Below the pieces are notes generated by a model. It ran no database searches. It worked only from the letters and a program-made list of their open reading frames with translations, and was not told where the DNA came from. A program made the position numbers and the translations under genes. A stretch of 35,835 nucleotides of DNA, taken from Deltaproteobacteria bacterium (GTDB lineage Bacteria > Desulfobacterota > Desulfobaccia > Desulfobaccales > 0-14-0-80-60-11). The stretch is from NCBI GenBank assembly GCA_019308625.1, contig JAFDHU010000012.1:1-35835 (forward strand), read 5' to 3'. How positions within the stretch are numbered: position 1 is the first letter of the stretch; each line of letters opens with the position of its first letter. Of the stretch, positions 14,985 through 29,473 are shown one piece after another.

Positions 14985-15028
14985 CAGCGCCTCTCCTTTT
15001 CGCCAACTGACTTCATTAAATCTGGCCG

Positions 15029-15403
15029 CTACAGGGCCAGAGCCTCCTTCAGATTACGTTTGGTGGCTTTGGCCACCTTGGCCACTTTGCTCTCCAGCTC
15101 TGCCGGATCCAGAGGAGTGAACAGGATTTCCTGGACACCCAGCCTGATGGCCTGCCGCAGGCAGGACAAATCGGGTGCACCGGTAATCATAAGCAAGCGC
15201 AGGTCCGGGCTGAGCTGGCGTAGCTCCTGCATCACTTCCAGGCCGGCAGGTCGGTCCACCTCCACCAAAGCCAACTCCAATTTCTGGGAACGGATGCACT
15301 CCAGGGCCGATTCTTTATCAGTAAAGTTGAAAAGCTTGTGTCCTTTTTTTCCCAGAACCTCTCTTATTTCCGGGTTATCCGCCCAAAGCAGGACGTTAGC
15401 CAC
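15029..15403 (-). CDS. stand-alone receiver-like domain protein (atypical)
   Basis: 124 aa; GTG start with an AAGGAGG RBS 7 nt upstream. CheY-like pattern (LALVEVD, LLMITG), but the N-terminal acidic pair is AD and the conserved Lys position reads FTP instead of KP. Confidence 0.7.
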   Translation of the reverse strand: MANVLLWADNPEIREVLGKKGHKLFNFTDKESALECIRSQKLELALVEVDRPAGLEVMQELRQLSPDLRLLMITGAPDLSCLRQAIRLGVQEILFTPLDPAELESKVAKVAKATKRNLKEALAL

Positions 15404-15517: not shown

Positions 15518-16111
15518 TTACTTCACCCTGGTCTTGGATTCCGCCGCCAGATCAACCAGGCTCTTCATCTCCTGGAGCTGCTCCTCATAGGAATCCAGGA
15601 TGACCTTGATGCGGCGGAAAAAGGGCAGCCGGTACTTGACCCGTTTGAACAGGAAGTAGGCCGCCACATAGACCACCAGAAACATCACCATGAAGTTGAC
15701 GCTTATACCGATCAGGGGGATAGGGAACTCCACCTCCAGGAAGCGGAACTGCATCCAGGCCAAAGCGAAGGGGATGGGCCAAAGAAAGGCGGCCGACAGG
15801 GCAATCTGCTGGAAAAAGGATTTGCCGAAGGCATCGTTGGCCAGCTTGTTGGCCGCGGCATAGGCCTGCTCATCTCCGGCCTTGAGGGCATCCACCGAGA
15901 TGTTCTGGTACTTCACCACTTCCCGAGTGAATTGGTCAATATGCCTCTTGTTGGCCAGAAAAGCCAAGGAAATGGAAAACTCCCCCAGAATCAGGACGAT
16001 GACGGCCAGCACAAAGGTGCCGATAAAGAAGTCCGGCAGGGCGTGGCCCGTGAGCCGGTAAAACCAGATCAGGTATGGGTCCAGGACCCTGAAGAAAACG
16101 GGCATGTCCAC
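15518..16111 (-). CDS. hypothetical integral membrane protein
   Basis: 197 aa with about 4 hydrophobic helices and an amphipathic central segment. GTG start with a GGGAG RBS. No family recognised. Confidence 0.65.
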   Translation of the reverse strand: MDMPVFFRVLDPYLIWFYRLTGHALPDFFIGTFVLAVIVLILGEFSISLAFLANKRHIDQFTREVVKYQNISVDALKAGDEQAYAAANKLANDAFGKSFFQQIALSAAFLWPIPFALAWMQFRFLEVEFPIPLIGISVNFMVMFLVVYVAAYFLFKRVKYRLPFFRRIKVILDSYEEQLQEMKSLVDLAAESKTRVK

Positions 16112-16171: not shown

Positions 16172-17332
16172 TTAGAACGGAGGGACCACCGAGTAACCCA
16201 GGAAACCCTTGCTGGTATAGCGCACCCCGACGTAAATGGCCAGGACCACGAACAGACGCTTCAGCCAGACGTCAGGGATATACTTGGAGGTGTAGGGCCC
16301 GATGAAGGAGCCGGTGGCGATGCCCACCAGTTCGGCGCCCACCAGCAGAAAGTCCACCGGCACCCCCTTGACAATCATGTAGCTGAAGATGGAGGTGATC
16401 ATCCCCACTAGCACAGCCACCGCCGAGGTGCCGGCCACGATGTACATGGGCAGGCCGGTCACCGAGGTAAGGAAGGGCACGTACAGGAAGCCGCCGCCGA
16501 TTCCCAGGAAGGCTGCCAGGGCGGCGATAAAGAAGCCGCCGATCACCGGCAGGATGGGGTTGAAAGAGAATTCCACCCCGCCGAAGGTAAACTTTACCCG
16601 AGTGGCGGTAAAGCTGGTGATCCTGGTGCCCAGGTCCGCGACGCTGCCACCGGCCTTTTTGGCCTTCACCGACTCTTCAAAGGCCCTGGCCGCCGCCCGG
16701 GCTTCCTTTCTCTTGGCCTGCCCCTTCTCGGTGGTCTCATAAAACAGCACCCCGGCGATGAGGAACACGCACAGGCCGAAATAGCCGATGTAGGCACTGA
16801 GTTTGATTTTCCCGGCCGTCAGCACCGGGATCAGGTAGGCCCCCAGAATGCTGCCGCCGGCCAGAAAGAGTCCCAGCGGCAACACAATTCTCCCCATGCG
16901 ATAGTAGTTGGTGGAGGAAATCAGGGCCGACAAGCCCACCAACCACTGGTTGGACACCCGGATGGAGTCGGTGATCAGTTTATTCAACACCGGGCTGGTC
17001 TTTTTGAAGGCCCGGCCGAAATCCGCCAAGCCGAAAATGGTGATGTGGCCCACGCCGGCCATGATGCCGCCGAAGGCGCCCACCGTGGAAAAAATCCAGC
17101 CTACCCAGATGGCCCACAGAATCCCCCACAGCCAGAAAGGTCTGGGGGCCCCGGGGATTCCCAGAAAGCCCGCTTTGGCGTCCATATTGAGTTGGCCTTT
17201 GCCTGTCCCCTTGGGCGTCATGGCAATGGCATCCTCCAGCTTCACGGCCCAGGAGGGCTCGGCCCACAGCAGGACCGCCACGGCAACCAGGAAAACCAAC
17301 ACTCCCACAAGCAACCACGTCTTTTTGTTCAT
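16172..17332 (-). CDS. TSUP/TauE-SafE family anion permease
   Basis: GGAGG RBS 7 nt before ATG 17332. Two repeated halves carry GAFGGIMAGVG and FLGIGGGFLYVPFL motifs, separated by a charged loop. The protein is multi-TM. Confidence 0.8.
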   Translation of the reverse strand: MNKKTWLLVGVLVFLVAVAVLLWAEPSWAVKLEDAIAMTPKGTGKGQLNMDAKAGFLGIPGAPRPFWLWGILWAIWVGWIFSTVGAFGGIMAGVGHITIFGLADFGRAFKKTSPVLNKLITDSIRVSNQWLVGLSALISSTNYYRMGRIVLPLGLFLAGGSILGAYLIPVLTAGKIKLSAYIGYFGLCVFLIAGVLFYETTEKGQAKRKEARAAARAFEESVKAKKAGGSVADLGTRITSFTATRVKFTFGGVEFSFNPILPVIGGFFIAALAAFLGIGGGFLYVPFLTSVTGLPMYIVAGTSAVAVLVGMITSIFSYMIVKGVPVDFLLVGAELVGIATGSFIGPYTSKYIPDVWLKRLFVVLAIYVGVRYTSKGFLGYSVVPPF

Positions 17333-17395
17333 AAAAAGGCCTCCGTTCAAATTAGGAAATCCGATTATGTCCTTAGTTCCGACATCCGGCTTTCA

Positions 17396-17545
17396 GGGTC
17401 GGGGGAGAGCATGGAGAATTCCCCCTCACCCTTCCCCTCTCCCCCATGGGGGGAGAGGGGATTAAAGAGCATCCGGGGGAGAATCACTGGGAAAGTCCCC
17501 CTCTCCCCCCGGTCCCCGGGGGGAGAGGGCCGGGGTGAGGGGGGT
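17396..17545. repeat. pair of GC-rich palindromic (REP-like) intergenic elements
   Basis: First hairpin: CCCCTCTCCCCC-ATG-GGGGGAGAGGGG (17434-17460, 12-bp stem), preceded by CCCCTCACCC. Second hairpin: 14-bp stem 17499-17512 with 17516-17529, followed by GGGGTGAGGGG. This is the same element in the opposite orientation. Confidence 0.85.
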
Positions 17546-17654: not shown

Positions 17655-17683
17655 TTGACATAAATCCATTTTTGTCTTAACAT
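17655..17683 (+). promoter_or_regulatory. sigma-70-like promoter candidate for the regulator/sensor operon
   Basis: TTGACA (17655-17660), a 17-nt spacer, then TAACAT (17678-17683). It lies in a strongly AT-rich island, about 50 nt upstream of ATG 17735. Confidence 0.45.
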
Positions 17684-17734
17684 GCTAACATAATATTAAT
17701 CATTAACATAAACATATTGCCGGGGGCTGGGAGA

Positions 17735-19102
17735 ATGATCCGTCTTGAGGCAGTTTGCGGCAGGGTATTGGAAACCATGCAGGAAGGAGTGGTGGTGGTG
17801 GACCCTACCGGGATGATTCAATGGGTCAACCAGGCCATGGAGAAGATTACCGGCTATGGTCGCCAGGAACTGGTGGGCCAGAGTTGTGCGGTCATCAGGA
17901 GCGACCGCTGTTTCAGCCCCGAGGGACCCACCCGGCACCAATGCCAGCTTTTCCAAGAGGGTGCCATACCCTCCTCCAAATGCGTTTTGGTGGCCAAAGA
18001 CGGCAGCCTGAAGCATGTCTTGAAAAATGCCGTGCTCCTGCAGGACGAGGCCGGCCAGGTGGCCGGCGGGCTGGAAATTATCCTGGACATCAGCGACCTA
18101 GTGGCCCAAGAACGGCTCATTGCCCGTTATCGCCAGGAGCTTCGCCAGGAACACGGCTTCCAGGGTTTGTTGGGGAGGTCTGCCGCCATGCTCCAGCTTT
18201 TTTCTCTGATTTCCAGCGCCGCCCAGACCGAGGCCCCGGTAATCATTTTCGGGGAGAGCGGCACCGGTAAGGAGCTGGTGGCCCAAGCCATTCACCGCCT
18301 CAGCTCCCGGCGGCATGGGCCCTTTGTCAGCGTCAACTGCCGAGCTCTGCCGGCCTCTCTCCTGGATAGCGAGCTTTTCGGCACCACCCGGGCAGCCTCA
18401 GGGAAGTCCGGTCGCCCAGGCCGCCTGCTGGAGGCCCACAGGGGACACCTCTTTTTGAAAGAGGTGGGGGATCTACCCCTGGCCCTCCAGGCCAGGATTC
18501 TCCGGATATTGGAGGGAAAAAGCCTGGATGAGGAAGGGAAAGAGACGGTGTCAGTGGATGTGCGCCTGATTGCCGCCACCACCCGGGACCTGGACCAGCT
18601 GATGTCCGAGGGCCGCTTCCTCCAGGAGCTTTTCTATCGTCTGAACGTCATCCCGGTGCATTTGCCTCCCCTTCGGGCCCGGCGGGAGGACATTCCTCTG
18701 CTGGCCGAGCATTTCCTGGAGCGGGCCGGCCTCAAGGCCCAGAAGGACATCCAAGGTTTCAGCCAGGGGGCCTTGGAGACGCTCATGACCTATGACTGGC
18801 CCGGGAATGTGCGGGAACTCATCAACGCGGTGGAGTATGCCACTCTACTGTGTCCCGGGGGCCACATTCTGCCGGAGCATCTGCCGGTCCATCTTTTCCT
18901 GAGGAGAGGGACGCACCGACGGCGGCTCACTCGGGCGAAGAGGGCCAGTCCGGCAGGCGACCGGGAATTGCTCCTTCAGGCCATGAAGGAAGCCGGGGGC
19001 AACCAGAGCGAAGCCGCCCGCAAGCTCGGAGTCAGTCGAGTTACGTTGTGGAAATGGCTGAAAAATTATAATATTAACCCCAAAGATCTGGGTTTGTTCT
19101 GA
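17735..19102 (+). CDS. PAS domain / AAA+ bEBP-type (NtrC-family) transcriptional regulator with degenerate Walker B and GAFTGA motifs
   Basis: PAS (VVVVDPTGMIQWVNQAMEKITGY). Walker A is GESGTGKE. The ESELFG-like DSELFG is followed by TTRAASGKS where GAFTGA is expected. LFLKEV replaces LFLDEI. RFLQELFYRLNV is present, and the C-terminal Fis-type HTH is GNQSEAARKLGVSRVTLWKWL. The ORF opens at TTG 17717; ATG 17735 is preferred. Confidence 0.85.
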   Translation: MIRLEAVCGRVLETMQEGVVVVDPTGMIQWVNQAMEKITGYGRQELVGQSCAVIRSDRCFSPEGPTRHQCQLFQEGAIPSSKCVLVAKDGSLKHVLKNAVLLQDEAGQVAGGLEIILDISDLVAQERLIARYRQELRQEHGFQGLLGRSAAMLQLFSLISSAAQTEAPVIIFGESGTGKELVAQAIHRLSSRRHGPFVSVNCRALPASLLDSELFGTTRAASGKSGRPGRLLEAHRGHLFLKEVGDLPLALQARILRILEGKSLDEEGKETVSVDVRLIAATTRDLDQLMSEGRFLQELFYRLNVIPVHLPPLRARREDIPLLAEHFLERAGLKAQKDIQGFSQGALETLMTYDWPGNVRELINAVEYATLLCPGGHILPEHLPVHLFLRRGTHRRRLTRAKRASPAGDRELLLQAMKEAGGNQSEAARKLGVSRVTLWKWLKNYNINPKDLGLF

Positions 19103-20088
19103 TGACCAGAAAGCGCTGTCACTCCCGCGACAGGGCGACCGGGATCTTGGTGGGGGTTGTGGCCTTGGTGCTGGGGGCTGCGATTCTCCTCGGGGGCTGC
19201 GGAGAGAGTGAGCCGGTCAAAAAGGTTGACCTGTCCCAACGGGAAGAAATCACGGTCTACCGCCCGGAGAACGCCGTCACCTATGCCTACCTGCCGCAGT
19301 ATGCCCACACGGTTTCCTATGAGCGCCACCACCTGCTGGTGGAGTATTTGTGCCGCGCCACCGGCCTTAAGTTCCGTCAGGTTTTCCCGGACACCTTTGA
19401 TGAGCATATGCACATGGTGGGTCGGGGCCTCATTGACATCTCCTTCAGTAACCCCTTTATTTACGTGAAAATCGCCGACCGTTACGGGGCCCGGGCTTTT
19501 GTCCGGGTGATTGAGAAAAAAGGCAAGGAAAAATTCCGGGGCCAGATCATTTGCCGGGCTGACAACCGGGAGATCAAGACCCTGGCGGACATCAAAGGCA
19601 AACGACTGATCGCCGTGGACCCCACCTCGGCCGGCGGCTTCCTCTACCCCATGAGTCTGATGATGAAGCACGGCATCCGCCGGGAGGATTTGGCAGAGAT
19701 CGCTTTCTCCCCCGGGCCGGGGGGTAAGCAGGAAAAAGTGGTCATGGCGGTGTATTCCGGGAAATACGATGTGGGCCTGATTCGGGAAGGGACCCTGGAT
19801 GTCCTGGCTGACAAGATTGACATCAAGGAAATCCGCATCCTGGCCCATACCCCCTGGTATCCGGGCTGGGTGTATGCCGCCCGGCGAGGGCTGGACCCGA
19901 AGGTGGTCCAGAAAACCAAACAGGCGCTTTTGGCCCTGGATATAAAAAATCCCCAGCACGCCGCCATCCTGAAAAGGGCCGGTTTCATTCGGGTGATTCC
20001 GGCCAAAGATGAAGACTTTGATCCGGTGCGGGAGCTGGCCGAGTTTGTAAAAGCCCAGGGAGGGCGAACCTTGAAGCCGCCGCCATGA
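19102..20088 (+). CDS. PhnD-like periplasmic substrate-binding lipoprotein (no cognate ABC permease/ATPase nearby)
   Basis: The start overlaps the upstream stop (TGATG). The lipobox is LLGGC. The body has the phosphonate/phosphate-binding-protein-like pattern (YAYLPQY..., GKRLIAVDPTSAGGFLYP). Confidence 0.75.
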   Translation: MTRKRCHSRDRATGILVGVVALVLGAAILLGGCGESEPVKKVDLSQREEITVYRPENAVTYAYLPQYAHTVSYERHHLLVEYLCRATGLKFRQVFPDTFDEHMHMVGRGLIDISFSNPFIYVKIADRYGARAFVRVIEKKGKEKFRGQIICRADNREIKTLADIKGKRLIAVDPTSAGGFLYPMSLMMKHGIRREDLAEIAFSPGPGGKQEKVVMAVYSGKYDVGLIREGTLDVLADKIDIKEIRILAHTPWYPGWVYAARRGLDPKVVQKTKQALLALDIKNPQHAAILKRAGFIRVIPAKDEDFDPVRELAEFVKAQGGRTLKPPP

Positions 20089-20112
20089 GGGCAGACCGAA
20101 CAAATCGGATTC

Positions 20113-22206
20113 ATGCGATTCCTAGCCAGATTATCTTTTAAAGGCAAAATAATCCTGGGCATCACGGCGGTGGTGTTGCTCTTCGGGGTATTGTCGGCCC
20201 TGTTTGTCAGCCGCATCGCCAGCCGGGCCATGCTGGCGGAAATTAAAAAACGGGGCCTGAGCCTGGGCCTGAGTCTGGCCGGGCGGGCGGCTGACCCCAT
20301 GCTGGCGGTGGACTTTCTCCGCCTCAAGAACATGGTGGATGAAATCAAGGAATCCAGCGACGACATTGTTTATGTCTTTATCCAGGACAAATCCGGCCAA
20401 GTATTGTCCCACACCTTCAAAAGCGGCTTCCCGGTCAATCTGAAAGCCGCCAACGTGGTGCCGCCGGGGGCTGAGCGCCACATTCAGTTGCTGGAAATTG
20501 ATGAAGCGGAGCGGGTTTACGACTTCGCCCTGCCGGTGGCCATCGGCAGCGAGCGCTTGGGCACGGTGCGGGTGGGACTTTCCCAGAGGAAGGCCCAAGC
20601 CGCGGTGCAGCGCCTGCTGTTTATTATCTTCAGTGTTTCCGTGGGCGGCGGGGTGGTGGCCGTGGTACTGGGCACTTTTTTTGCCCGCACCGTTACCCGG
20701 CGTCTGGATGTGTTGCGCAAATCCGCCGAGGAGATCGTCAAAGGCAACCTGGATGTCCAAACCGGACCACGGCTCAAAAAAAACTGTTGGGAGATCAAAA
20801 ACTGTCAGAACCCGAAATGCCCGGCTTATGGCGACATCCGCCGCCGCTGCTGGTATCTGGCCGGTACCCTGTGTCCGGAGTGCGCTCCCGGAGCTTTTGA
20901 ACAAAAGATCCAGGCCTGTCGTACCTGCAGGGTTTATTGGGAAAACGCCGGTGACGAAATCCAGAGCCTGGCTGAAGCCTTTGACTTTATGGCCCTCAGC
21001 CTGAATTCCTATATTGAGGACCTCAAGGAGGCGGAGAAAAACATCACCCGGCAGCAGCAACTTTTCAAGACCATCCTGGACGTCACCCCCGACCTGATGA
21101 GCCTCCAGGATGCCGACCTGCGCTTCCGGGCCGTCAATCCCGCCTTCTGCCAATATTTCTCCTTCACCGAAGCCGACATCCTGGGCAAAACCTACGCCGA
21201 TCTTTTCCCGCCCGAGAAGGCCGAGCTTTTCCGAGCCGAAGACCTGGAGATCATGCGGACCGGCAAGCCTCTTTCCAAGGAAATTTTAATCAGCAAAGGG
21301 AAAAACCAGCACTGGTTCCACATGGTGAAGGTGCCGGTTTACGACGAGGCCCGGATTGTGGGTTTGCTGCTCACGGCCCGGGACATTACCGAAATGAAGC
21401 GCTTTCAGGAAAAGCTGATTCAGACCGTGAAAATGGAGGAGCTGGGCAAGCTGGCCGGCGGCGTGGCCCACGAAATCAACACCCCCCTGGGCATCATCCT
21501 GGGCTATGCCCAGATGCTCCTGGAAGACATCCCCCCGGACCGCGAAAGCCATGAGTATCTGAAAATCATTGAAAAACAGACCCAAATCGCCCGCCGCATC
21601 GTGGCCGACCTGCTGAACTTTTCCCGGGTGAGCGAAAGCCGCATGGAGGAAATGGACCTCAACCGGTCCATCGACGAGGTGCTGCAACTGGTGCGGCATA
21701 TCTTCAAGCAGGACTGGGTGGACCTGGAGGTCTCCCTTGACCCTCGGATCCCGCTTATCCGGGGGGACCGGGAGAAGCTCAAACAGGTGTGGCTCAACCT
21801 GTTGAACAATGCCTTTGAATCCATCGGCCGGGACGGTCTTATTCGGATGACCTCCAAGCTGTGCCCCCAGGGAAATCATGTGGTGGTGACCGTCTCTGAT
21901 ACCGGCGCCGGTATCAGCGACCAGGACCTGGAACGGATTTTTGAACCCTTTTTCAGCACCAAGGGCCCGGGGGTGGGCACCGGCCTCGGCCTGTCAGTGT
22001 CCTACGGCATTGTCCGGGAGCACCATGGCAGGATTTTTGCGGTGAGCCCGGCTCCGCCGGAGTTTCTGGGCCATACCGGAAAACCTGCAGGCCCCGGAGC
22101 CCTGTTTGTGGTGATCCTCCCGGTGGATTGGGAGAGGCCCGTAGTGGATGCTTGCGAGGAACTGGCGGCGCTCAACCTGTATGACCACCGCTGGGCCGCC
22201 GTGTAG
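20113..22206 (+). CDS. sensor histidine kinase (periplasmic sensor, HAMP split by 8-Cys module, PAS, HisKA, HATPase_c)
   Basis: Two TM segments flank a periplasmic domain of about 140 aa. HAMP AS1 is [20 protein letters not shown] and AS2 is [21 protein letters not shown] is present. The H-box is [17 protein letters not shown], the N-box [10 protein letters not shown] and the G-boxes DTGAGI/GTGLGLS. Confidence 0.9.
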
Positions 22207-22214
22207 GAGGACTT

Positions 22215-22598
22215 ATGGGACAGATATTGGTGCTGGACGACATCCTGGACGCGGCGGTGATGGTCCAGCGCATCCTGGAGCGCAAAGGCCATCAGGTGGC
22301 GGTTTTCACCGATGAAGAGGAGGCCTTGGCCCACCTGCGGGCCTCTCCGGTGGATGTGGCTATTCTGGATATCCGGCTCAAAAAGATGAGCGGCGTGGAT
22401 GTTCTGGAAGAGATGAAAAAAATCTCGCCCCGTACCCAGGTCATCATGCTTACCGGCTATCCCACCCTGGAGACGGCCCGCCAGGCCCAGGAGTGGGGCG
22501 CTTTTGATTACTGCATCAAGCCCATTGACAAGGACGAGCTGGAGGAGAAGGTGGCCAGCGCGCTGGCTGCCGCCGCCGCGCCCGTCCAGACCCCATGA
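22215..22598 (+). CDS. stand-alone CheY-like response regulator receiver
   Basis: 127 aa with a GGAGGA RBS. Canonical residues are present: LVLDD, AILDIRL, MLTG, IKP. Confidence 0.9.
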   Translation: MGQILVLDDILDAAVMVQRILERKGHQVAVFTDEEEALAHLRASPVDVAILDIRLKKMSGVDVLEEMKKISPRTQVIMLTGYPTLETARQAQEWGAFDYCIKPIDKDELEEKVASALAAAAAPVQTP

Positions 22599-25126
22599 AT
22601 TTCGGCCAGTTCCTGAAATACTGGACCCTCCAGGCCTTCGCGCCAGGCAAACTGCTGCACCACAAATACGCCGCGTTCAAGGAACTCCTGCGCCACGACA
22701 AGAGAAGCCTGGAGCTCATTACCGAACTGGAGGAAATTCGGCACGGGGGGATGCCGGTGGATTGGGCCAGGGTGAGCCGCCTGGTCCGGGCCCTCAACTG
22801 GTCGGTGGGCGGTCTGATCCGCTCCCTGAGGGCCATGCACCCGTTAGCCTACGGGGATTTGGAGCAGCGTTTCGCTGCTCTGGAGTCCTCCCTTCTGGCG
22901 GCCATTTCCCTCCCCCGGGGAGACGGAACCCCGCCCTACGCTTTGACGCTGATGGAGGCCGCCGAGGCGCCGGCCTTGGCCGGAGGCAAGGCCCAGGCCT
23001 TGGGACGGGTTCTCAGGGAAACGAAGCTGCCGGTCCCTCGGGGCTTTGTCATCACCACCCGGGCTTTCCACCTTTTCCTGGCCCACAATAGCCTCTGGCA
23101 CCGGCTGGAAGAGCTTTTAAGTGAAGCCCGCCCGGACCACTGGGAACGTCTGCAGGAACTCTCTCGGGAAATGACCGCCATGGTCCTGGAAGGGGAGATC
23201 CCGAGCCCGGTGAGGCGGGAAATCAGGCAGCGGCTCTCCGAACTTAAACAGGAAGGGGTCAGCTCTTTCAGTCTCCGGAGCAGCGCCGTCGGGGAGGATG
23301 GGGAGGCCTCCTTCGCTGGCCAGTACGCCAGCGTGCTGCAGGTGCCCGCCGAGGCTGTGCTGGCAGCTTATAAAGAAGTCCTGGCCGGCAAATATGCGCC
23401 CCGGGCCGTGGCTTACCGCATCCGGCAGGGTTTGGCGGAGGAAGACACCTCCATGGCCGTGTTGGTCATGGAAATGATTGAGGCCCGGGTCAGCGGCGTG
23501 ATTTACACCCGGGACCGGCCGCCCGGGGGGGAGGTGCCGGAAGCAGTGGCGGTGTATGCGGTCCCTGGTCCGGGACGGCGGCTGGTGGACGGCAGTGCCG
23601 AACCGGAGGTGCACTATTTCACCCGGGAGCCTGAGCCCCGGTTGCTGCAGAGCATCCCCGGCCGCGCTTGTGCGGCGGAGTTTCCCGGGAAGGGCTGCCT
23701 CGCCCCGGAGACTGCGGCCCTTCTGGCCGCCTGGGGCCTGCGCCTGGAAGAGTTGGCCGCTTGCCCCCAGGATATCGAGTGGTGCCAAGACAGACTGGGG
23801 GCCTGCTACATTCTGCAGACACGGCCCCTGGTAACGGAAGATGGTTCCTTCCCCGGGGAGGAAGCCAGGGAGATGCCGTCTGTCCGCCTGCCTGTCCTCC
23901 TGGAGGAAGGGGATACGGCCAGCCCCGGGGTGGCGACGGGCCGGGTTTACGTTCTCCGGAGTGAGGCGGAGTTGGGTGAGGTGCCCGAGGGAGCGGTACT
24001 GGTATGTCCCACCCTGTCGCCTTCTCTGGCGGGGGTGGTGGGGCGGCTGCGAGCGGTGGTGGCGGAGAGCGGCAGTCGGGCCAGCCATTTTGCCTCCGTG
24101 GCCCGGGAATTTGGCCTGCCCGTGCTGGCCGCGGCTTCCGGGGCCGCCCGGCGCCTGACTCCCGGCCAGGTGGTCACGGTGGATGCCGACCGCGGCCGGA
24201 TTTACCAGGGGGAGAGGCCCGGTCCGGCCCGGGAGCTTCAAGGGGCTGCCACCCGGCCGGGCGCGCCGTTTTGGAACCGGTTGCACCGGGTCATGGAACT
24301 GGTGGCCCCTTTGCACCTCCTGGATCCCGCCTCCCCTGAATTTTCTCCGGCCCACTGCGCCAGTGCCCACGATTTTGTGCGGTTTGCCCATGAAAAAGGC
24401 ATGGCCGAGATGTTCTCCCTGGTGGGGCGAAGCGGCCGGGGACTGGGCCGGGCCCGGCAACTGACCACCGATCTGCCCATCACCATTTATGTACTGGACC
24501 TGGAGGGCGGCGTGGCCCCAGAAGCCGCGGACAAAAAGACCATTGAGCCTCGGCATATTACCTCCCCTCTGATGCGGGCCTGCTGGGAAGGGCTCACCCA
24601 TCCGGAGGTGACCTGGCAAAAAGGTCTGGTGCACCTGGACTGGGAGGAGATGGACCGCATTAGCGCCGGCATTGTGAGTTTCAAATCACCCCGTCTGGCC
24701 AGCTATGCAGTAGTGGCCCAGGAATATCTGCATCTAGTGCTGCGGTTCGGCTATCATTTTGCCGTCCTGGACGCCCTGTGTGGAGAGGACTCTGAGGCCA
24801 ACTATCTCACCTTCCGCTTTAAGGGCGGCGGCGCGGACTACGACCACCGGCTGCGGCGGGTGAGGCTCATCCGGGACATCCTGGAGTGGGCCGGGTTCAC
24901 CGTCCAGACCCGGGGGGACCTGCTGGATGCCCGCTTTGCCCGCCGCCCCGCTGCCCCCACCCTGGCCCGCCTGACCCTGCTGGGGATCCTCCAGGGCAAA
25001 ACCCAGCTTTTGGATATGGCCCTGGACAGCGAGCTCCAGGTGGAGGAAATGGCGGCTGACTTCAAGGCCAGGTTTGGGAGATATGCAGCCGACGCCGAAA
25101 TGCCGGAACGCGGGGATAAAGGTTGA
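22595..25126 (+). CDS. PEP-utilising/PpsA-PPDK-like phosphohistidine enzyme with uncharacterised N- and C-terminal domains
   Basis: ATGA overlap with the receiver gene. PPDK_N-type ATP-grasp motifs: GGKAQALG, SLRSSAVGEDGEASFAGQ, MAVLVMEMIEARVSGVIYT, DIEWCQD..YILQTRP. The swivel domain is GVATGRVYV...VLVCPTLSPS...ESGSRASHFASVAREFGLPVL (His498, nt 24086-24088). The last 290 aa or so lack motifs of the PEP/pyruvate TIM barrel. Confidence 0.85.
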   Translation: MNFGQFLKYWTLQAFAPGKLLHHKYAAFKELLRHDKRSLELITELEEIRHGGMPVDWARVSRLVRALNWSVGGLIRSLRAMHPLAYGDLEQRFAALESSLLAAISLPRGDGTPPYALTLMEAAEAPALAGGKAQALGRVLRETKLPVPRGFVITTRAFHLFLAHNSLWHRLEELLSEARPDHWERLQELSREMTAMVLEGEIPSPVRREIRQRLSELKQEGVSSFSLRSSAVGEDGEASFAGQYASVLQVPAEAVLAAYKEVLAGKYAPRAVAYRIRQGLAEEDTSMAVLVMEMIEARVSGVIYTRDRPPGGEVPEAVAVYAVPGPGRRLVDGSAEPEVHYFTREPEPRLLQSIPGRACAAEFPGKGCLAPETAALLAAWGLRLEELAACPQDIEWCQDRLGACYILQTRPLVTEDGSFPGEEAREMPSVRLPVLLEEGDTASPGVATGRVYVLRSEAELGEVPEGAVLVCPTLSPSLAGVVGRLRAVVAESGSRASHFASVAREFGLPVLAAASGAARRLTPGQVVTVDADRGRIYQGERPGPARELQGAATRPGAPFWNRLHRVMELVAPLHLLDPASPEFSPAHCASAHDFVRFAHEKGMAEMFSLVGRSGRGLGRARQLTTDLPITIYVLDLEGGVAPEAADKKTIEPRHITSPLMRACWEGLTHPEVTWQKGLVHLDWEEMDRISAGIVSFKSPRLASYAVVAQEYLHLVLRFGYHFAVLDALCGEDSEANYLTFRFKGGGADYDHRLRRVRLIRDILEWAGFTVQTRGDLLDARFARRPAAPTLARLTLLGILQGKTQLLDMALDSELQVEEMAADFKARFGRYAADAEMPERGDKG

Positions 25127-25148
25127 ATCAGGAGACTGGGTGAGGCCA

Positions 25149-26216
25149 ATGGTCAGGAGCGGCTATCGGATGGACTGGATTACGGACAGCCTGGCGGTGG
25201 GCCAGGCACCCATGTCCTATGCCGCCCTGGACCAAGTGCGAGAGCAGGGCATCGGTGCCATCCTGAACCTGTGCGCCGAGTTTTGCGACCTGCACTGGAT
25301 TGAGGCCGAGGCCGGCTTTGAGGTGTATTATCTCCCCATCCCCGATGAGGAGGCGCCGGACCTGGAGGCACTGGAGAAGGCCCTGGACTGGCTGGACGAA
25401 TGCATTTTTCTGGGGAAAAAGGTGCTGGTGCACTGCCGCTTTGGGGTGGGCCGCACCGGCACGGTGGTGAACGCCTACCTGCTGCGCAAGGGGCTGGGGC
25501 ACAAGCTGGCTGGCCGCAAACTCAAGGGGTTCAAGGCCCGGCCCGCCAGCTTTGACCAGTGGTGGTTCATCCGCAAGTATGGCAAACAGGAGAAGCCCCT
25601 GACCATCCGGGAGCCGGCCCTGGAGACCAAACACCTGGTGGATTTATTTCCCTTTTTCCGGGAGTATGAGGGGCTGGTCCAGGAGGTGGATATGCACCTG
25701 TTGCGGGACGACGGAGAACCCCGGTGCGGCCAGGGCCACTCGGCATGCTGCCGGGAACTGGTGCTCATGCCCTTTATTGAGGCAGTGTATACCCATCATG
25801 TCATCAACACCACCCTGGAGCGCGCCGTCCGCCAGCAGGTCATTCACCGGGCAGTGGAGGCCAGCCGGACGCTCCGGGAGGTGGCGCGGGAGACGGGTAC
25901 AGATTTCCATACTGCGGACTTCGCCGCCGGCTATCGCCAGGCCCGGATTCTGTGCCCTCTGAACGAGGCTGGGGATTGCGTGATTTTTGAGAACCGGCCC
26001 TTGGCCTGCCGCCTCTTTGATCTTCCCGGCCGGGAGCGCCGGGAGGTGTCAGCAGCACTGGCCTCCCGACTGGCCGACCTCTCAGAGAGGGTGTACTCTG
26101 CCTTCGCCTCTCAGCAGCCTGCCGGATTCTCCCTGGACTTTCCCCTGCCCGAGGTGGTCTCCGGCAAGTTTATCCAGGCCTTCTTCCACCATCTCATCAA
26201 GGGCCGGGCCGCCTAG
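25149..26216 (+). CDS. dual-specificity (Cys-based) protein phosphatase domain fused to a YkgJ/CxxCxxCC-type Cys-rich domain
   Basis: The HCX5R P-loop is VLVHCRFGVGRTGTV (Cys at nt 25434-25436), with the upstream Asp loop PIPDEEAP. The C-terminal half has CGQGHSACC and CPLNEAGDCVIFENRPLACRLF, typical of the putative Zn/Fe-chelating UPF0153 family. The start is ambiguous (25074, 25149 or 25170); 25149 follows an AGGAGA RBS. Confidence 0.75.
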   Translation: MVRSGYRMDWITDSLAVGQAPMSYAALDQVREQGIGAILNLCAEFCDLHWIEAEAGFEVYYLPIPDEEAPDLEALEKALDWLDECIFLGKKVLVHCRFGVGRTGTVVNAYLLRKGLGHKLAGRKLKGFKARPASFDQWWFIRKYGKQEKPLTIREPALETKHLVDLFPFFREYEGLVQEVDMHLLRDDGEPRCGQGHSACCRELVLMPFIEAVYTHHVINTTLERAVRQQVIHRAVEASRTLREVARETGTDFHTADFAAGYRQARILCPLNEAGDCVIFENRPLACRLFDLPGRERREVSAALASRLADLSERVYSAFASQQPAGFSLDFPLPEVVSGKFIQAFFHHLIKGRAA

Positions 26217-26368: not shown

Positions 26369-28639
26369 CTAAGCCTTTAAATTCGGAATTTGGCGCACCG
26401 CCTTGGGATCTTTCCAGGTGAGGCGGATTTCCTCCCCCACGTGATACAGACTCAGGTCCTCACCTTCCTTCAGGATATAGGTGACCTGGTCCTCACGGAT
26501 GTCCACCTCCAGCACCCGGCCCCGCACTCTCAAGGAGAACCGGAGCTGCTGCAGGACCTCCAGACGCTGGGGATGAAAGGAGAGCCGGCCGTTGTAGTCC
26601 CGCATGCCGGCAAAGCCGTTGACCAGAATCATCCACACTGCTCCCATGGAGGCGATGTGGCAGCCGTCGGCCACATTTCCCCCCACGTCGTACAGGTCCA
26701 TCAGCACGGCGTAGCGGGCGTATTCCCCGGCCTTCTGGTGGTGGCCCACCTCAAAGGCTAAAATACTTTGGATGCCTACCGACAGGGAGGAGTCGCCAGT
26801 GGTGAGGGGGTCGTAAAAATCAAAGTTGCGCCTTTTCTGTTCCAGGGAAAATTTGTCCCCCAGAAGAAACATGGCCAGCACGATGTCAGCCTGTTTGACC
26901 ACCCGGTACCGGTAAATGACCAGAGGATGATAATGCAGCAGCAGGGGGTATTTATCCGGCGGGGTGTGTTCAAAGTCCCAGACCTCTTTTTCCAGAAAGC
27001 TGTCGTCCTGGGGATGGATGCCGGTCTGCTGGTCATAGGGGATGTACATCTTGTCCGCGGCGGCCTGCCACTCTTCAATTTCGTCCGGCTGCAGATTGGT
27101 TTTGTCCAGGAGTTCAACGAAGTGCTCAGGCTTCTCCTCCCGGAGCTTTCTTATGGTGTGGGCGGCAAACCACAGGTTTTCCCGGGCCATCAGATTGGTA
27201 AAGGTGTTGTTGTTCACCACGGTGTTGTACTCGTCCGGTCCGGTCACCCCGTTGATGCAGAACTGGCCCTTCTTCCTCTCCGAGTAAAAGCCCAAATCCC
27301 GCCACAGGCGGGCCGTTTCCACCAACATCTCGTTGAGAAAGTCCTCATCGCCGGTTATCTCAGTATATTTCTTTAGGGCGTGCACGATGTCGGCGTTGAT
27401 GTGGTACTGGGCCGTGCCAGCGGCATAGTAGGCCGAGGCTTCCTCGCCATTAATGGTGCGCCAGGGAAAGAGCGCGCCCTGCTCGTTGAGCTCTGCGGCC
27501 CGCCGCCTGGCCTTGTCCAGCATGCCATAGCGATGCTCCAGCAGGTTCCGGGCGATATGCGGCTGAGTATAAATGAGAAACGGCATTATATAGATTTCCG
27601 CATCCCAGAAATAATGGCCCTCGTAGCCCTGTCCGGTGAGCCCCTTGGCGGGAATACCGGCATTTTCCGCCCGGGCAGTGGCCTGGCACAGGTGGAACAG
27701 GTTAAAGCGGATCCACTGCTGGATTTCCTTGTTGTGATGGCGGGCGTGCTCGGGGTTGATAATCACCTGGATATCGCTGCGCTGCCAGAAGTCGTCCAGA
27801 TACTCCCGCTGGCTGGCTAGCAGGACCTCAAAACCATGCTCCAGGGCCCGGTCCAGGGTCCATTCTGCCCGTTCGCACAGCTCTTCCGGGGGCTGGGTTC
27901 TGGATTTGTGGTAGGCCATATACTTGGTGATGGTGATGGGCTTCCCTGGCTGGGCGTCCACATTGTACAGCACCTTGGCGGCGTTCCTGGAGCATTTGAT
28001 CTTGAAAGTGTAAGGGCACTCGGTGGTGATGACATGGTCGGTGGCGCAGGCCAGGGCCATGCGGCTGTTGATGGTCGTGTGGCTCAGCATCAGCCGCTGC
28101 TCCTGGGCGTAGTGGACCTGGGACTCCAGCACCTGTCCCCGCAGGCCGTGGGCCCGCCGCGGGTCGCCGGCGCGGTCCTCGTCGGCCAGGGGAGTGGCCA
28201 TCTCCGAAGAGATGACCACCGGGGCCCGGGCGTTGAGCACCGTCACCTCATAGGCCACCGCGGCCAGATGACGGTACTCCAGGGACACCAGCCGGGTGGA
28301 TTTGATGGACACCAGCTTGCCCGCGGGCGTCTTCCACAGCACCTCCCGGGTGAGAGTCCCGCCCCGGAAGTCCACGACCCGCTCAAAACTCTGCAGGTCA
28401 GCAGCCGGCAGGTAAAAAGGCTCATCGTCCACGTACAGCTTGATGATCTTGGCATCGGTGACGTTGACGATGGTCTGGCCCATCTTGGCGAAGCCGTAGG
28501 CCTCCTCCCCATAGAGGATGGGCCAGGTTTCATAGAAGCCGTTGATGAAGGTACCGTTGTGGTGCACCGGCGCGCCTTCCTCAAAGTTGCCCCGCAGCCC
28601 CAGGTAGCCGTTGCCCAGGGAAAACAGGGTCTCCCTCAC
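26369..28639 (-). CDS. glycoside hydrolase family 65 alpha-glucoside phosphorylase (maltose/trehalose/kojibiose phosphorylase-like)
   Basis: 756 aa with LFSLGNGYLGLRGNFEEG near the N-terminus, GYEGHYFWDAEIY, and the (alpha/alpha)6 body pattern. GTG start. The N-terminus is about 20-30 aa shorter than in family members I recall. Confidence 0.85.
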   Translation of the reverse strand: MRETLFSLGNGYLGLRGNFEEGAPVHHNGTFINGFYETWPILYGEEAYGFAKMGQTIVNVTDAKIIKLYVDDEPFYLPAADLQSFERVVDFRGGTLTREVLWKTPAGKLVSIKSTRLVSLEYRHLAAVAYEVTVLNARAPVVISSEMATPLADEDRAGDPRRAHGLRGQVLESQVHYAQEQRLMLSHTTINSRMALACATDHVITTECPYTFKIKCSRNAAKVLYNVDAQPGKPITITKYMAYHKSRTQPPEELCERAEWTLDRALEHGFEVLLASQREYLDDFWQRSDIQVIINPEHARHHNKEIQQWIRFNLFHLCQATARAENAGIPAKGLTGQGYEGHYFWDAEIYIMPFLIYTQPHIARNLLEHRYGMLDKARRRAAELNEQGALFPWRTINGEEASAYYAAGTAQYHINADIVHALKKYTEITGDEDFLNEMLVETARLWRDLGFYSERKKGQFCINGVTGPDEYNTVVNNNTFTNLMARENLWFAAHTIRKLREEKPEHFVELLDKTNLQPDEIEEWQAAADKMYIPYDQQTGIHPQDDSFLEKEVWDFEHTPPDKYPLLLHYHPLVIYRYRVVKQADIVLAMFLLGDKFSLEQKRRNFDFYDPLTTGDSSLSVGIQSILAFEVGHHQKAGEYARYAVLMDLYDVGGNVADGCHIASMGAVWMILVNGFAGMRDYNGRLSFHPQRLEVLQQLRFSLRVRGRVLEVDIREDQVTYILKEGEDLSLYHVGEEIRLTWKDPKAVRQIPNLKA

Positions 28640-28723
28640 GATGCAGCATGATTTTCTACCTCAGTCTGTCCTCCAGGTTTGGATTGGTTGGCATTTTTAG
28701 GGCCCGGGCTTCCCCGGCCTGGG

Positions 28724-29473
28724 TCAGTCTATCAGTTCCCTCAAGTCCGCCACCACCAGGTCGGCGCCGCCCTCTTTCAGGGCCAGGGCATCGCCCTTGC
28801 GGTCCACCCCGATGACCAGGCCAAAGCCCCCGGCCCGCCCGGCGGCCACCCCGGAGAGGGCATCCTCCACCACCACCGCTCGCTCAGGCTGCACTTGCAG
28901 CATGGCCGCGGCCTGGAGAAAGGTGTCGGGCGCGGGCTTGCCGGGCAGGTCAAGGTCGTCGGCCACGTTGCCGTCCACCCGCACATCAAACAACTCCGCC
29001 AGGCCCACGGCCTCCAGCACCTCCTGGCAGTTTTTGCTGGCGGACACCACCGCGGTTTTCAGGCCTAAGGTGCGCACATGCCGGGCCAGGGCCACGCCGT
29101 CCGGATGGATGTCCACTTCTCCGTGCCTGATTTTCTCTTTGACCATTTCGTCCTTGAGATTGCCCAGGCCGCAGACGGTGGCAGTCCCCGGCGGATCCTG
29201 GGGCGTCCCGAAGGGCAGCTCAATGCCCCGGGAGGCCAGGAAGCTTTGCACCCCGTCATATCTGAGCTTGCCGTCCACGTAATGCTTGTAGTCTGTGGCC
29301 AGGTCAAAGGGTTGCAAGGTCCTGCCGGACTCCACGGCGCGGCGGGACAGGAAGTCGTCAAACATCCTCTTCCAGCAGGCCGCATGGATTTTGGCGGTGG
29401 CGGTGATGACCCCGTCCAGGTCAAAGAGCACCGCGTCAAATTTATCCGGGGTGATGATGGGTTTGGGGCTCAT
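28724..29473 (-). CDS. pgmB: beta-phosphoglucomutase (HAD superfamily)
   Basis: DAVLFDLDGVIT (DxDGV) and the C-terminal VVEDALSGVAAGRAGGF. AAGGA RBS. It is immediately upstream of the GH65 gene, the classic pairing. Confidence 0.85.
   Translation of the reverse strand: MSPKPIITPDKFDAVLFDLDGVITATAKIHAACWKRMFDDFLSRRAVESGRTLQPFDLATDYKHYVDGKLRYDGVQSFLASRGIELPFGTPQDPPGTATVCGLGNLKDEMVKEKIRHGEVDIHPDGVALARHVRTLGLKTAVVSASKNCQEVLEAVGLAELFDVRVDGNVADDLDLPGKPAPDTFLQAAAMLQVQPERAVVVEDALSGVAAGRAGGFGLVIGVDRKGDALALKEGGADLVVADLRELID

Follow-up and report, generated by a model that had tools for sequence, protein, structure and literature searches.

What does an enzyme built like phosphoenolpyruvate (PEP) synthase phosphorylate when its PEP/pyruvate barrel is replaced by another domain, and what does it mean that its gene lies between those of a response-regulator receiver and a Cys-dependent phosphatase? 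The question is raised by a complete 35.8-kb contig from an uncultured Deltaproteobacteria bacterium (all 35,835 nucleotides of it, here called the window), which carries in direct succession the genes for a stand-alone receiver, an 843-aa PpsA-like dikinase, and a phosphatase of the dual-specificity (DSP) type with a Cys-rich extension. On balance we consider it probable that these three genes make up a two-component-gated reversible phosphorylation module. New here are the acceptor domain, the N-terminal domain, the fixed partnership with a Cys phosphatase, and the pair as a proposed two-component output. Already known are the chemistry of the dikinase superfamily and two of the four dikinase domains; the DSP is recognizable as such, and the receiver is an ordinary one.

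The preliminary description of this DNA had credited the 843-aa protein with a complete PPDK_N-type ATP-grasp domain and a swivel phosphohistidine domain, and strong Pfam matches bear out both assignments (Table 1). The swivel motif SRASHFAS can be read directly in the sequence, with the codon of the catalytic His498 at 24086-24088. Over 75 orthologs the ATP-grasp motifs GGK132, R228-SSA231, E234-D235, FAGQ243, E395-W396, and Q408-x-R410 are invariant, as are G493, S494, A496, and H498 of the swivel domain (G493-S-x-A-x-H498). Judged from these residues, the ATP-grasp and swivel-His catalytic apparatus is intact. PpsA and PPDK are the best sequence and fold matches of the protein (2ols, 8a8e, 1kbl). 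An AlphaFold2 model of the whole chain (35 homologs, pLDDT 81.6, pTM 0.78) finds PpsA (2ols), RPH (5hv1 and 5hv6), HpeI (9goj), and PPDK (1kbl) in Foldseek searches, in each case via the ATP-grasp and swivel domains only.

Database names would make this protein an ordinary gluconeogenic PEP synthase or pyruvate kinase. GenBank calls it a pyruvate kinase, JGI homologs are named pyruvate, water dikinase, the name PEP/pyruvate-binding domain-containing protein also occurs, and the best NCBIfam match is indeed a PpsA model. However, the PpsA models score far below their cutoffs (243 bits versus 598 for NF005057 and 232 versus 739.75 for TIGR01418) and cover only the ATP-grasp and swivel domains. 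Alignments to solved PpsA, RPH, and PPDK structures in a PDB sequence search stop at residue 543, similarity to pyruvate kinase is confined to the swivel-like domain (2e28, 4e-6), and there is no PEP-utilizers_C TIM barrel. The rifampin phosphotransferase model NF041857 reaches 165 bits against a cutoff of 999, the phosphotransferase system (PTS) Enzyme I model TIGR01417 matches the swivel region only (residues 458-537, 6e-5), and the Pfam and NCBIfam searches returned no specific family model for the protein. The regulatory Thr of PpsA and PPDK, which is the residue phosphorylated by PSRP and PDRP, is replaced by the invariant Ala496 (local sequence GSRASH). In PEP synthases this Thr stands two residues before the catalytic His, in the motif GGxT-S/C-H (PMC12167813). 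A plain PpsA or pyruvate kinase is thus refuted at the level of domain content by the missing barrel and the subcutoff scores, and we give it practically no credence. The names are over-annotations, since neither domain content nor scores support them, and dikinases misnamed in this way may cause gluconeogenesis to be overcalled when metabolism is reconstructed from Desulfobacterota metagenome-assembled genomes. Because a PEP-binding domain is absent, the enzyme is expected to be driven by ATP and not by PEP; of the earlier suggestion that either might serve, the intact ATP-grasp domain favors the first half, and the missing PEP-binding domain speaks against the second.

What stands in place of the barrel is a domain of about 290 residues, as the preliminary description had proposed. 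Residues 545-843 have no Pfam match, and when the C-terminal domains of 15 members were searched with the limit relaxed to E<=10, still none matched a Pfam family. Its AlphaFold2 topology is a four-stranded beta-meander followed by a helix, a hairpin, and more helices, with no beta/alpha barrel. Modeled alone, it reaches a pLDDT of 72, with 60 residues below 50, and a Foldseek search of that model against the PDB returned nothing below E 1e-3 and no TIM-barrel match. The top match, 2plg, is weak (E 2.7e-3, TM 0.23/0.37) and belongs with 1xkp and 3kxy to YbjN or type III chaperone-like folds. We provisionally regard the modeled domain as a novel fold. It is also the most conserved region of the protein: over the 75 orthologs, 14.5% of its columns are at least 97% identical, versus 13% in the ATP-grasp domain, 9% in the swivel domain, and 7% in the N-terminal domain. 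Invariant are D593, R596, H599, E600, W674, D682, D687, S703, Y704, H713, R717-F-G-Y-H721, N736, R741-F-K-G-G-G746, R755, and D775, a pattern more in keeping with an active or ligand-binding site than with a scaffold. The domain is presumed from this conservation to be the site of acceptor binding and phosphotransfer.

A clue to the kind of reaction comes from the partner gene. A phosphatase ortholog lies directly 3' of the dikinase gene, or is fused to it, in 65 of the 72 loci with at least 1.2 kb of downstream sequence, and it is displaced by a single inserted gene in two more. (These and the following genome counts rest on the 80 best loci of the genome scan, the denominators being the loci with enough flank.) Start-stop overlaps of 4 to 8 nt between the two genes are common, and the synteny is conserved from Desulfobaccales to Desulfovibrionales. 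Single chains that combine the dikinase, the DSP, and the Cys domain are found in P0158 (1252 aa) and P0206 (1205 aa), where Pfam and sequence confirm all parts, and continuous reading frames of about 1170 to 1250 aa with the same content occur in L011, L030, L043, and L069. The independent fusion proteins number at least six, and since they are seen in both Syntrophobacterales-like and Desulfovibrio lineages, fusion arose more than once. The phosphatase family, with 1613 matches, is about the size of the dikinase family. Pairing or fusion of a kinase with a phosphatase is typical of regulatory switches (Wzc/Wzb, PtkA/PtpA, HprK/P, AceK), and fusion in particular is a hallmark of switches by which the level of phosphorylation is set (HprK/P, AceK, PFK2/FBPase2) and not of catabolic activation.

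The phosphatase half of the partner protein is well defined. Over roughly residues 34-145 it matches Tc-R-P (PF22785, 4e-19), DSPc (PF00782, 1e-12), and PTP-SAK (2e-12), and HCRFGVGRTG is read directly in its sequence, with the catalytic Cys codon at 25434-25436. Across 61 orthologs there is no variation in the HCRxGxGRTG loop, in the PIPD-E general-acid loop, or in six Cys of the C-terminal part. Its closest solved relatives are archaeal protein tyrosine phosphatases (PTPs), namely, 9e9l (8e-15) and 5z59/5z5a/5z5b (about 1e-12), with which it aligns through the PIPDxxAP loop; DUSP10, DUSP23, and PTEN follow. ATG 25149, as in the NCBI model, is the most likely start of the reading frame, and GTG 25140 is possible; AGGAG at 25130 precedes both. 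TTG 25074 is most likely not the start, so the gene does not overlap that of the dikinase. For the C-terminal half, the preliminary description fared less well: the DSP that it named is upheld by Pfam and by the signature loop, and the CxxCxxCC motif that it had read as YkgJ type is not there. The first motif is C-x6-CC, three further invariant Cys follow, and CxxCxxCC (PF03692, COG0727) scores 17.1 bits against a cutoff of 23 (E 0.009), which is subthreshold. We therefore call the domain YkgJ-type only tentatively on sequence grounds; JGI labels many of the orthologs "Fe-S-cluster containing protein" on the basis of clusters of orthologous groups (COGs). Some relatives have a 149-aa DSP that lacks the Cys domain, so this domain is accessory.

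The other flank is nearly as constant. The receiver gene overlaps the dikinase gene as had been described: its TGA (22596-22598) shares ATGA with the dikinase ATG (22595-22597) in the context CC-ATGA-AT. A 4-nt overlap of this type is found in 10 loci, and a receiver ortholog (57 to 87% identity) lies directly 5' of the dikinase gene in 58 of 72 loci, again from Desulfobaccales to Desulfovibrionales. The phosphatase and the receiver are both adjacent to the dikinase in 50 of 67 loci; conserved synteny had been proposed as a check on the cassette, and it is borne out by these counts together with the natural fusions. A histidine kinase gene stands upstream in 41 of 59 loci and a gene for a PhnD-like binding protein in 39 of 59. 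Even the rearranged locus L080 keeps the link, in the order dikinase, DSP, PhnD, kinase, and receiver. In Maridesulfovibrio loci, a divergent hybrid kinase with its own receiver domain takes the place of the two-component set. The receiver itself has its phospho-acceptor Asp52 at codon 22368-22370 and no output domain. Among 39 orthologs, D8, D9, D52, T80, Y99, K102, and the alpha4/alpha5 face are at least 95% conserved, and the alpha4-beta5-alpha5 face as a whole is strongly conserved.

The same arrangement extends to relatives of the family. Another 80 loci came from a metagenome scan for which a sister subfamily served as the seed; 16 of them belong to the DSP-linked subfamily A (the type of the window), 17 to a lectin-extended subfamily B of about 1050 aa, and 47 to a subfamily C of about 840 aa. 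Among the neighbor clusters of the metagenome loci, the second largest (26 loci) is a receiver of about 138 aa, and the order kinase-receiver-dikinase is found again in subfamily C and, in a single case, in subfamily B, which makes the proposed control by a stand-alone receiver a trait of the superfamily. The members of subfamily B (loci L081 and L093-L109; proteins P0233, P0238, P0254, and P0266) have the same N-terminal domain, ATP-grasp domain, swivel domain, and C-terminal domain (with the variants KFGYHF and QFAGGAGNY), followed by a ConA-like lectin domain. Scanned alone, the lectin domain matches PF21708 with 30.1 bits and bears a weak similarity to levanase CBM66 (E 0.06). The contexts of this subfamily are heterogeneous, and the hints that it offers are accordingly weak.

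Such close coupling of receiver and dikinase could also mean that phosphate passes between them, the dikinase acting as an ATP-driven phosphodonor in a noncanonical phosphorelay in which His498 gives phosphate to, or takes it from, Asp52 of the receiver and the phosphatase drains the relay. The ATGA overlap and the kinase-receiver-dikinase order kept across subfamilies are consistent with this, as is the helical N-terminal domain of the dikinase, given that PTS Enzyme I docks its protein acceptor via a helical subdomain. Yet in at least 14 of 72 loci the dikinase and the phosphatase occur together with no receiver gene next to them, no receiver-dikinase fusion occurs among the 150 best representatives, a relay ending in a receiver without an output domain would have no output, and the most conserved domain of the enzyme, which looks like a dedicated acceptor site, would be left without a role. 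Nor, to our knowledge, do PTP-fold enzymes act as aspartyl-phosphate phosphatases. A relay from the phosphohistidine to the receiver, which the preliminary description had raised as an alternative, is accordingly disfavored, and because the core persists without the receiver, the receiver lacks an output, and the C-terminal domain would be roleless, we hold it to be very improbable.

A different role for the receiver suggests itself from the N-terminal end of the dikinase. The extra domain noted there before appears in the AlphaFold2 model as a four-helix domain, and residues 1-127 have no Pfam match. Structure prediction followed by Foldseek, proposed earlier as a check on both ends of the protein, thus gave a helical bundle at one end and, at the other, the matchless domain described above. 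The bundle is kept across the superfamily, including the subfamilies without a linked phosphatase. An Hpt phosphotransfer bundle was ruled out, as the domain has no invariant His. Because the N-terminal domain and the linkage to stand-alone receivers both recur across the superfamily, we propose it as a docking site, and we infer from this co-occurrence only that it may be a regulatory or receiver-docking module.

Put together, these data suggest the following mechanism for a two-component-gated module. The PhnD-like protein and the histidine kinase would sense an extracytoplasmic anion and phosphorylate the receiver, as gene order and translational coupling suggest. The phosphorylated receiver would bind the dikinase, most plausibly at its four-helix N-terminal domain, and switch it on or off. 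By the chemistry of its family, the dikinase would bind ATP in its ATP-grasp domain, transfer the gamma-phosphate to water and the beta-phosphate to His498, and release AMP and Pi; the swivel domain would then carry the phosphate to the C-terminal domain, which would hold the hydroxyl of a non-pyruvate acceptor. The DSP, with its Cys-x5-Arg loop and Asp general acid, would strip the phosphate from the acceptor again, and adjacency and fusion suggest that the two enzymes jointly determine how far a single target is phosphorylated. The six-Cys domain of the DSP is probably a binding site for a metal or Fe-S cluster, through which a second input may enter. The target would be encoded outside the cassette. 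An opposing phosphatase under two-component control, which the preliminary description had suggested, is in line with the conserved adjacency of phosphatase and receiver and with the fusions, as a prediction from gene context. The conditions under which that description would have given up its idea, as far as they can be examined computationally, do not refute it.

Several considerations weigh against this scheme. Literature searches found no characterized member of the family and no biochemical or genetic data for any member. The 47 loci of subfamily C have no linked phosphatase, so an opposing phosphatase does not accompany the whole superfamily. The N-terminal domain is also present in loci without an adjacent receiver, and the binding of the receiver to it is conjecture on our part. 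Confidence in the model of the C-terminal domain is moderate. Finally, kinase and phosphatase could act at two different steps of a pathway.

Which acceptor the reversible module would serve is a separate matter. Our first choice is a protein or aryl hydroxyl, our second a small anion transported by the TSUP permease, and our third an alpha-glucan; none of the clues, whether permease, phosphatase type, glucan genes, or other contexts, is decisive.

One such clue is a second recruitment of a phosphatase. In subfamily B, the gene for a low-molecular-weight PTP (LMW-PTP), a Cys phosphatase of unrelated fold, lies just 5' of the dikinase gene in L081 (with a 2-nt gap), L101, and L103. That two PTP folds have been recruited indicates that dephosphorylation of the product matters and mildly favors a phosphotyrosine-like or aryl-phosphate product. 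In a protein dikinase, a special case of the module proposed above, the C-terminal domain would hold a segment of a protein, the swivel His would serve to phosphorylate Tyr (or Ser/Thr) of a protein encoded elsewhere, or of the TSUP permease, and the PTP-type phosphatase would reverse this. Both linked phosphatases are built on folds that are classical for protein tyrosine phosphatases, archaeal protein PTPs are the closest relatives of the DSP, pairing or fusion of kinase and phosphatase is typical of regulatory switches, and the weak fold match of the C-terminal domain is to YbjN and type III chaperone-like, that is, peptide-binding, folds. Characterized relatives phosphorylate phenolic hydroxyls (PMC12167813). 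Against a protein acceptor stand the insignificance of those fold matches (E 2.7e-3 or worse, TM <=0.4) and the want of any consistently adjacent candidate substrate gene. We know of no PpsA-fold enzyme that phosphorylates a protein other than the PTS carriers, and lipids, glucans, RNA, and small molecules are substrates of PTP-fold enzymes as well. We regard a protein dikinase as a tentative proposal with perhaps one chance in a handful of being right. The same low expectation applies to what would follow from it, namely, that this is the first protein kinase on the PEP-synthase chassis of ATP-grasp and swivel His, switched by a receiver and using the beta-phosphate of ATP, so that a two-component signal becomes O-phosphorylation.

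The neighboring permease points in another direction. Of the 56 genome loci whose upstream sequence is long enough, 21 have a TSUP permease gene, which in Desulfovibrionales runs in the same direction as the cassette; so do 21 of the 80 metagenome loci, 17 of them among the 47 of subfamily C. The permease and a small membrane protein recur next to the dikinase in three subfamilies, which could point to the compound that is sensed or phosphorylated, or to a regulated transporter. The PhnD-like lipoprotein is likely the ligand sensor of the kinase. No ABC transporter partner is present for it, it also matches the NCBIfam TtrS sensor domain, and it resembles binders of phosph(on)ate, selenate, and tetrathionate. 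These observations are consistent with a small-molecule dikinase acting on an anionic (aromatic or sulfur-containing) compound handled by the permease and sensed by the PhnD-like protein, with chemistry like that of phenylphosphate synthase or HpeHI; the phosphatase would reset or proofread the pool, or the pair would switch a signaling metabolite as PFK2/FBPase2 does. The permease recurs both in the subfamily of the window and in the phosphatase-less sister subfamily, the characterized non-PpsA relatives are all small-molecule dikinases, and the many invariant Arg, Lys, and His residues and the Gly-rich loop of the C-terminal domain would suit an anionic ligand. On the other hand, a dedicated and often fused phosphatase would render catabolic activation futile, no pathway enzymes are conserved downstream in the cassette, the domain order differs from that of the RPH/HpeH/PpsAB clade, and the NCBIfam scores lie far under the cutoffs. 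A small-molecule acceptor, too, seems to us a possibility to be put forward with caution, at about the weight given to a protein.

A third set of neighbors concerns storage glucans. The dikinase gene lies directly 3' of an alpha-glucan phosphorylase gene in L018, L065, L090, and L091 (in L091 a TreT-like glycosyltransferase is encoded there as well) and directly 3' of genes for GH57 and GH13 enzymes in L020; these loci are of the Desulfobacca type and have no two-component genes. A link to storage-glucan metabolism is possible, and with it a bacterial counterpart of starch phosphorylation, in which a GWD-like dikinase and a SEX4-, LSF2-, or laforin-like DSP would act on glycogen or polyglucose and turn an external signal into glucan mobilization. 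The sole described partnership of a dikinase with a DSP is that of GWD/PWD with SEX4/laforin (PMC9254107). Glycogen phosphorylation in bacteria is an open question in the literature. A glucan target would need no gene in the cassette, sister subfamily B carries a ConA-like lectin domain, and GH65 and beta-phosphoglucomutase genes adjoin the cassette in the window. However, the latter two are convergent to the cassette and not conserved with it, no glucan gene lies within 10 kb in 75 of the 80 genome loci, and the four phosphorylase loci are of common ancestry and count as one event. The subfamily of the window has no recognizable carbohydrate-binding module (CBM), and no specific relationship ties the DSP to laforin or SEX4: laforin, SEX4, and LSF2 are all absent from its top 60 PDB sequence matches. 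Its loop reads CRFGVGR, with Phe at the position of the Ala in the glucan-phosphatase signature. A glucan acceptor is, in our estimate, unlikely, and we place it a little below the two preceding candidates.

Comparison with known systems helps to locate the module. PpsA and PPDK share with it the order of ATP-grasp domain, swivel His, and C-terminal acceptor domain, the kept ATP-grasp and His motifs, and the expected products AMP and Pi. The present enzyme differs from them in its unrelated alpha/beta domain in place of the TIM barrel, its extra four-helix domain, its Ala in place of Thr, its dedicated phosphatase, and its two-component control. Rifampin phosphotransferase, phenylphosphate synthase PpsAB, HpeHI, CreHI, and PigC/RedH likewise use the ATP-grasp and swivel chassis with swapped acceptor domains to phosphorylate hydroxyls. 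Unlike the protein described here, in which the swivel domain precedes the acceptor domain, they have a substrate domain before a C-terminal swivel domain or are split into two proteins; they serve catabolism, resistance, or biosynthesis and have no partner phosphatase or receiver. Short C-terminal-domain matches of about 380 to 420 aa in our searches, considered as split dikinases of this kind, are probably gene fragments (P0244 begins inside PPDK_N).

GWD and PWD with SEX4, LSF2, or laforin provide the parallel of a His-swivel dikinase opposed by a DSP-fold phosphatase on one target (PMC9254107). GWD differs in its N-terminal CBM45 modules, its C-terminal ATP-grasp domain, its eukaryotic distribution, and its lack of two-component control, and glucan phosphatases carry CBMs or glucan-binding surfaces, whereas no CBM was detected in either protein here. 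PTS Enzyme I and EI-Ntr (PtsP) resemble the dikinase in handing phosphate from a swivel phosphohistidine domain to a protein acceptor in a regulatory role, but they are driven by PEP through a TIM barrel and have no ATP-grasp domain, and only the swivel region matches. In Wzc-Wzb, PtkA-PtpA, HprK/P, AceK, and PFK2/FBPase2, finally, an opposing kinase and phosphatase, co-encoded or fused, set a regulatory phosphorylation. Wzb and PtpA are LMW-PTPs, like the phosphatase partner of subfamily B; the kinases of these switches are unrelated in fold and chemistry, and none uses a phosphohistidine dikinase mechanism.

The family is large. A word-indexed search found 1864 full-length homologs of the dikinase, the best 120 of which are nearly all 810 to 855 aa long, with query coverage of 96 to 100%. 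An exhaustive HMMER search with the C-terminal domain gave 1111 clusters at 50% identity (512 below 1e-30), almost always with the domain at the same C-terminal position in proteins of about 810 to 880 aa. In the genome scan, relatives were found in 428 GTDB species. The 80 best loci are all from Desulfobacterota (Desulfobaccales, Syntrophobacterales, Desulfobulbales, and many Desulfovibrionales) and include cultured strains of Pseudodesulfovibrio, Maridesulfovibrio, Solidesulfovibrio, Desulfofustis, and Desulfovibrio. PADLOC gave no match for the dikinase or the phosphatase as part of an anti-phage defense system.

If the proposed module is real, two-component signals would take a new route to their output, through a stand-alone receiver that acts on a phosphohistidine dikinase and its phosphatase and not on transcription. 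They would do so in a family of considerable size, with no fewer than 1100 clusters at 50% identity and 428 species genomes, whose members are now mislabeled as PEP synthase or pyruvate kinase. Should the acceptor be a protein, this would be a new class of protein kinase; a glucan acceptor would extend to bacteria a reversible glucan phosphorylation that until now only plants, algae, and animals have been known to perform; and with a metabolite as acceptor, sulfate reducers would prove to contain a phosphorylated compound that is new. The cassette is experimentally tractable, since mutagenesis can be aimed at a single His, a single Cys, and a single Asp, and there are cultured, genetically tractable hosts among its Pseudodesulfovibrio, Solidesulfovibrio, and Oleidesulfovibrio relatives.

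Table 1. Coordinates of the cassette, its domains, and the neighboring genes in the window
Feature	Position	Strand	Evidence and remarks
Stand-alone receiver, 127 aa, MBW1990760.1	22215-22598	+	Pfam Response_reg (PF00072) 1e-25
PpsA-like dikinase, 843 aa, MBW1990761.1	22595-25126	+	Pfam PPDK_N and PEP-utilizers; C-terminal domain provisionally novel
N-terminal four-helix domain of dikinase, ~residues 1-110	22595-22924	+	AlphaFold2 helices 3-15, 17-51, 57-81, 87-104; pLDDT 70-96
ATP-grasp nucleotide-binding domain of dikinase, PPDK_N (PF01326), residues 128-416	22976-23842	+	Pfam 5e-63
Swivel phosphohistidine domain of dikinase (PF00391 PEP-utilizers), residues 464-534	23984-24196	+	Pfam 1e-17
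C-terminal alpha/beta domain of dikinase (provisionally novel), residues 546-843	24230-25123	+	Motifs HEKGMAEMF, LRFGYHF, FRFKGGG
DSP-type Cys phosphatase with six-Cys domain, 355 aa, MBW1990762.1	25149-26216	+	Pfam
Cys-rich domain of phosphatase	~25707-26213	+	Invariant Cys codons 25725, 25746, 25749, 25953, 25977, 26007
PAS-AAA+-HTH_8 enhancer-binding protein (bEBP)	17717-19102	+	Pfam; no receiver domain; opens six-gene run
PhnD-like periplasmic binding lipoprotein	19102-20088	+	Pfam Phosphonate-bd 1e-59; lipobox LGGC
Sensor histidine kinase	20113-22206	+	Pfam sCache_3_2, HAMP, PAS, HisKA, HATPase_c
TauE/TSUP-family permease	16172-17350	-	Pfam TauE 1e-23; divergent from cassette
197-aa membrane protein, paired with TSUP permease	15518-16111	-	
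GH65 and beta-phosphoglucomutase genes	26369-29473	-	Convergent to cassette (GH65 is disaccharide-phosphorylase-like)

In the window, the cassette closes a run of six genes on one strand (17717-26216, +), with overlaps or gaps of <=24 nt throughout. The enhancer-binding protein, the PhnD-like protein, and the kinase, previously placed upstream in the same operon, are confirmed by Pfam as the products of its first three genes, which lie 5' of the receiver gene on the same strand with spacings of 0 to 24 nt (Table 1). Outside the core cassette, the gene context is variable. In Desulfofustis (L015 and L017), the dikinase-phosphatase pair stands without two-component genes, with a hybrid-cluster protein (prismane) gene 5' and a 4Fe-4S ferredoxin gene 3', neighbors that point to a setting of redox or nitrosative stress for the pair in this lineage.

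The kinase has a Cys-rich insert between its HAMP and PAS domains (20785-20931, residues 225-273), which reads CWEIKNC-x4-C-x9-CW-x7-C-x2-C-x11-C-x2-C. Six of its Cys are conserved in at least 91% of 44 orthologous kinases, and the insert has no Pfam assignment. It is possibly a cytoplasmic metal, Fe-S, or redox-sensing module, in parallel with the Cys-rich domain of the phosphatase.

The enhancer-binding protein seems to be less firmly tied to the cassette. By tblastn, it is adjacent only in loci of the Desulfobaccales/Syntrophobacterales type. Its orthologs in L002, L004, L005, L008, and L011 retain the sigma-54 contact motif GAFTGA, which is degenerate in this contig (ELFGTTRAASGKS; 18371-18409, residues 219-231; reads TTRAASGKS). 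The protein may be decaying or sigma-54 independent here; with its motif decayed and its occurrence confined to close relatives, it is peripheral to the cassette. A sigma-54 promoter for the operon was considered and rejected, in view of this motif and of a scan of the window for TGGCAC-N5-TTGCW that gave 15 matches versus 20 expected. A sigma-70-like sequence, TTGACA-17-TAACAT, lies at 17655-17683, 5' of the first gene of the run. Papers mapping sigma-54 promoters and response regulators in D. vulgaris make no mention of a gene like that of the dikinase.

Two further features of the window lie upstream of the run. The intergenic region between the TSUP and enhancer-binding protein genes holds G+C-rich nested inverted repeats at 17421-17543 (30-nt arms 83% complementary and a perfect 14-nt hairpin) as well as a 34-nt direct repeat whose copies are 70 nt apart, possibly a REP-like element or a bidirectional terminator. 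Beyond the permease and the membrane protein, the stretch 12150-15403 (-) encodes a 944-aa fusion of a TorD-like chaperone (residues ~4-207) with a PhsA/thiosulfate-reductase-like molybdopterin oxidoreductase and, directly upstream of the fusion gene, an orphan 124-aa receiver (15029-15403, -). Taken with the resemblance of the PhnD-like sensor to TtrS, these genes hint at a sulfur-oxyanion theme in the neighborhood.

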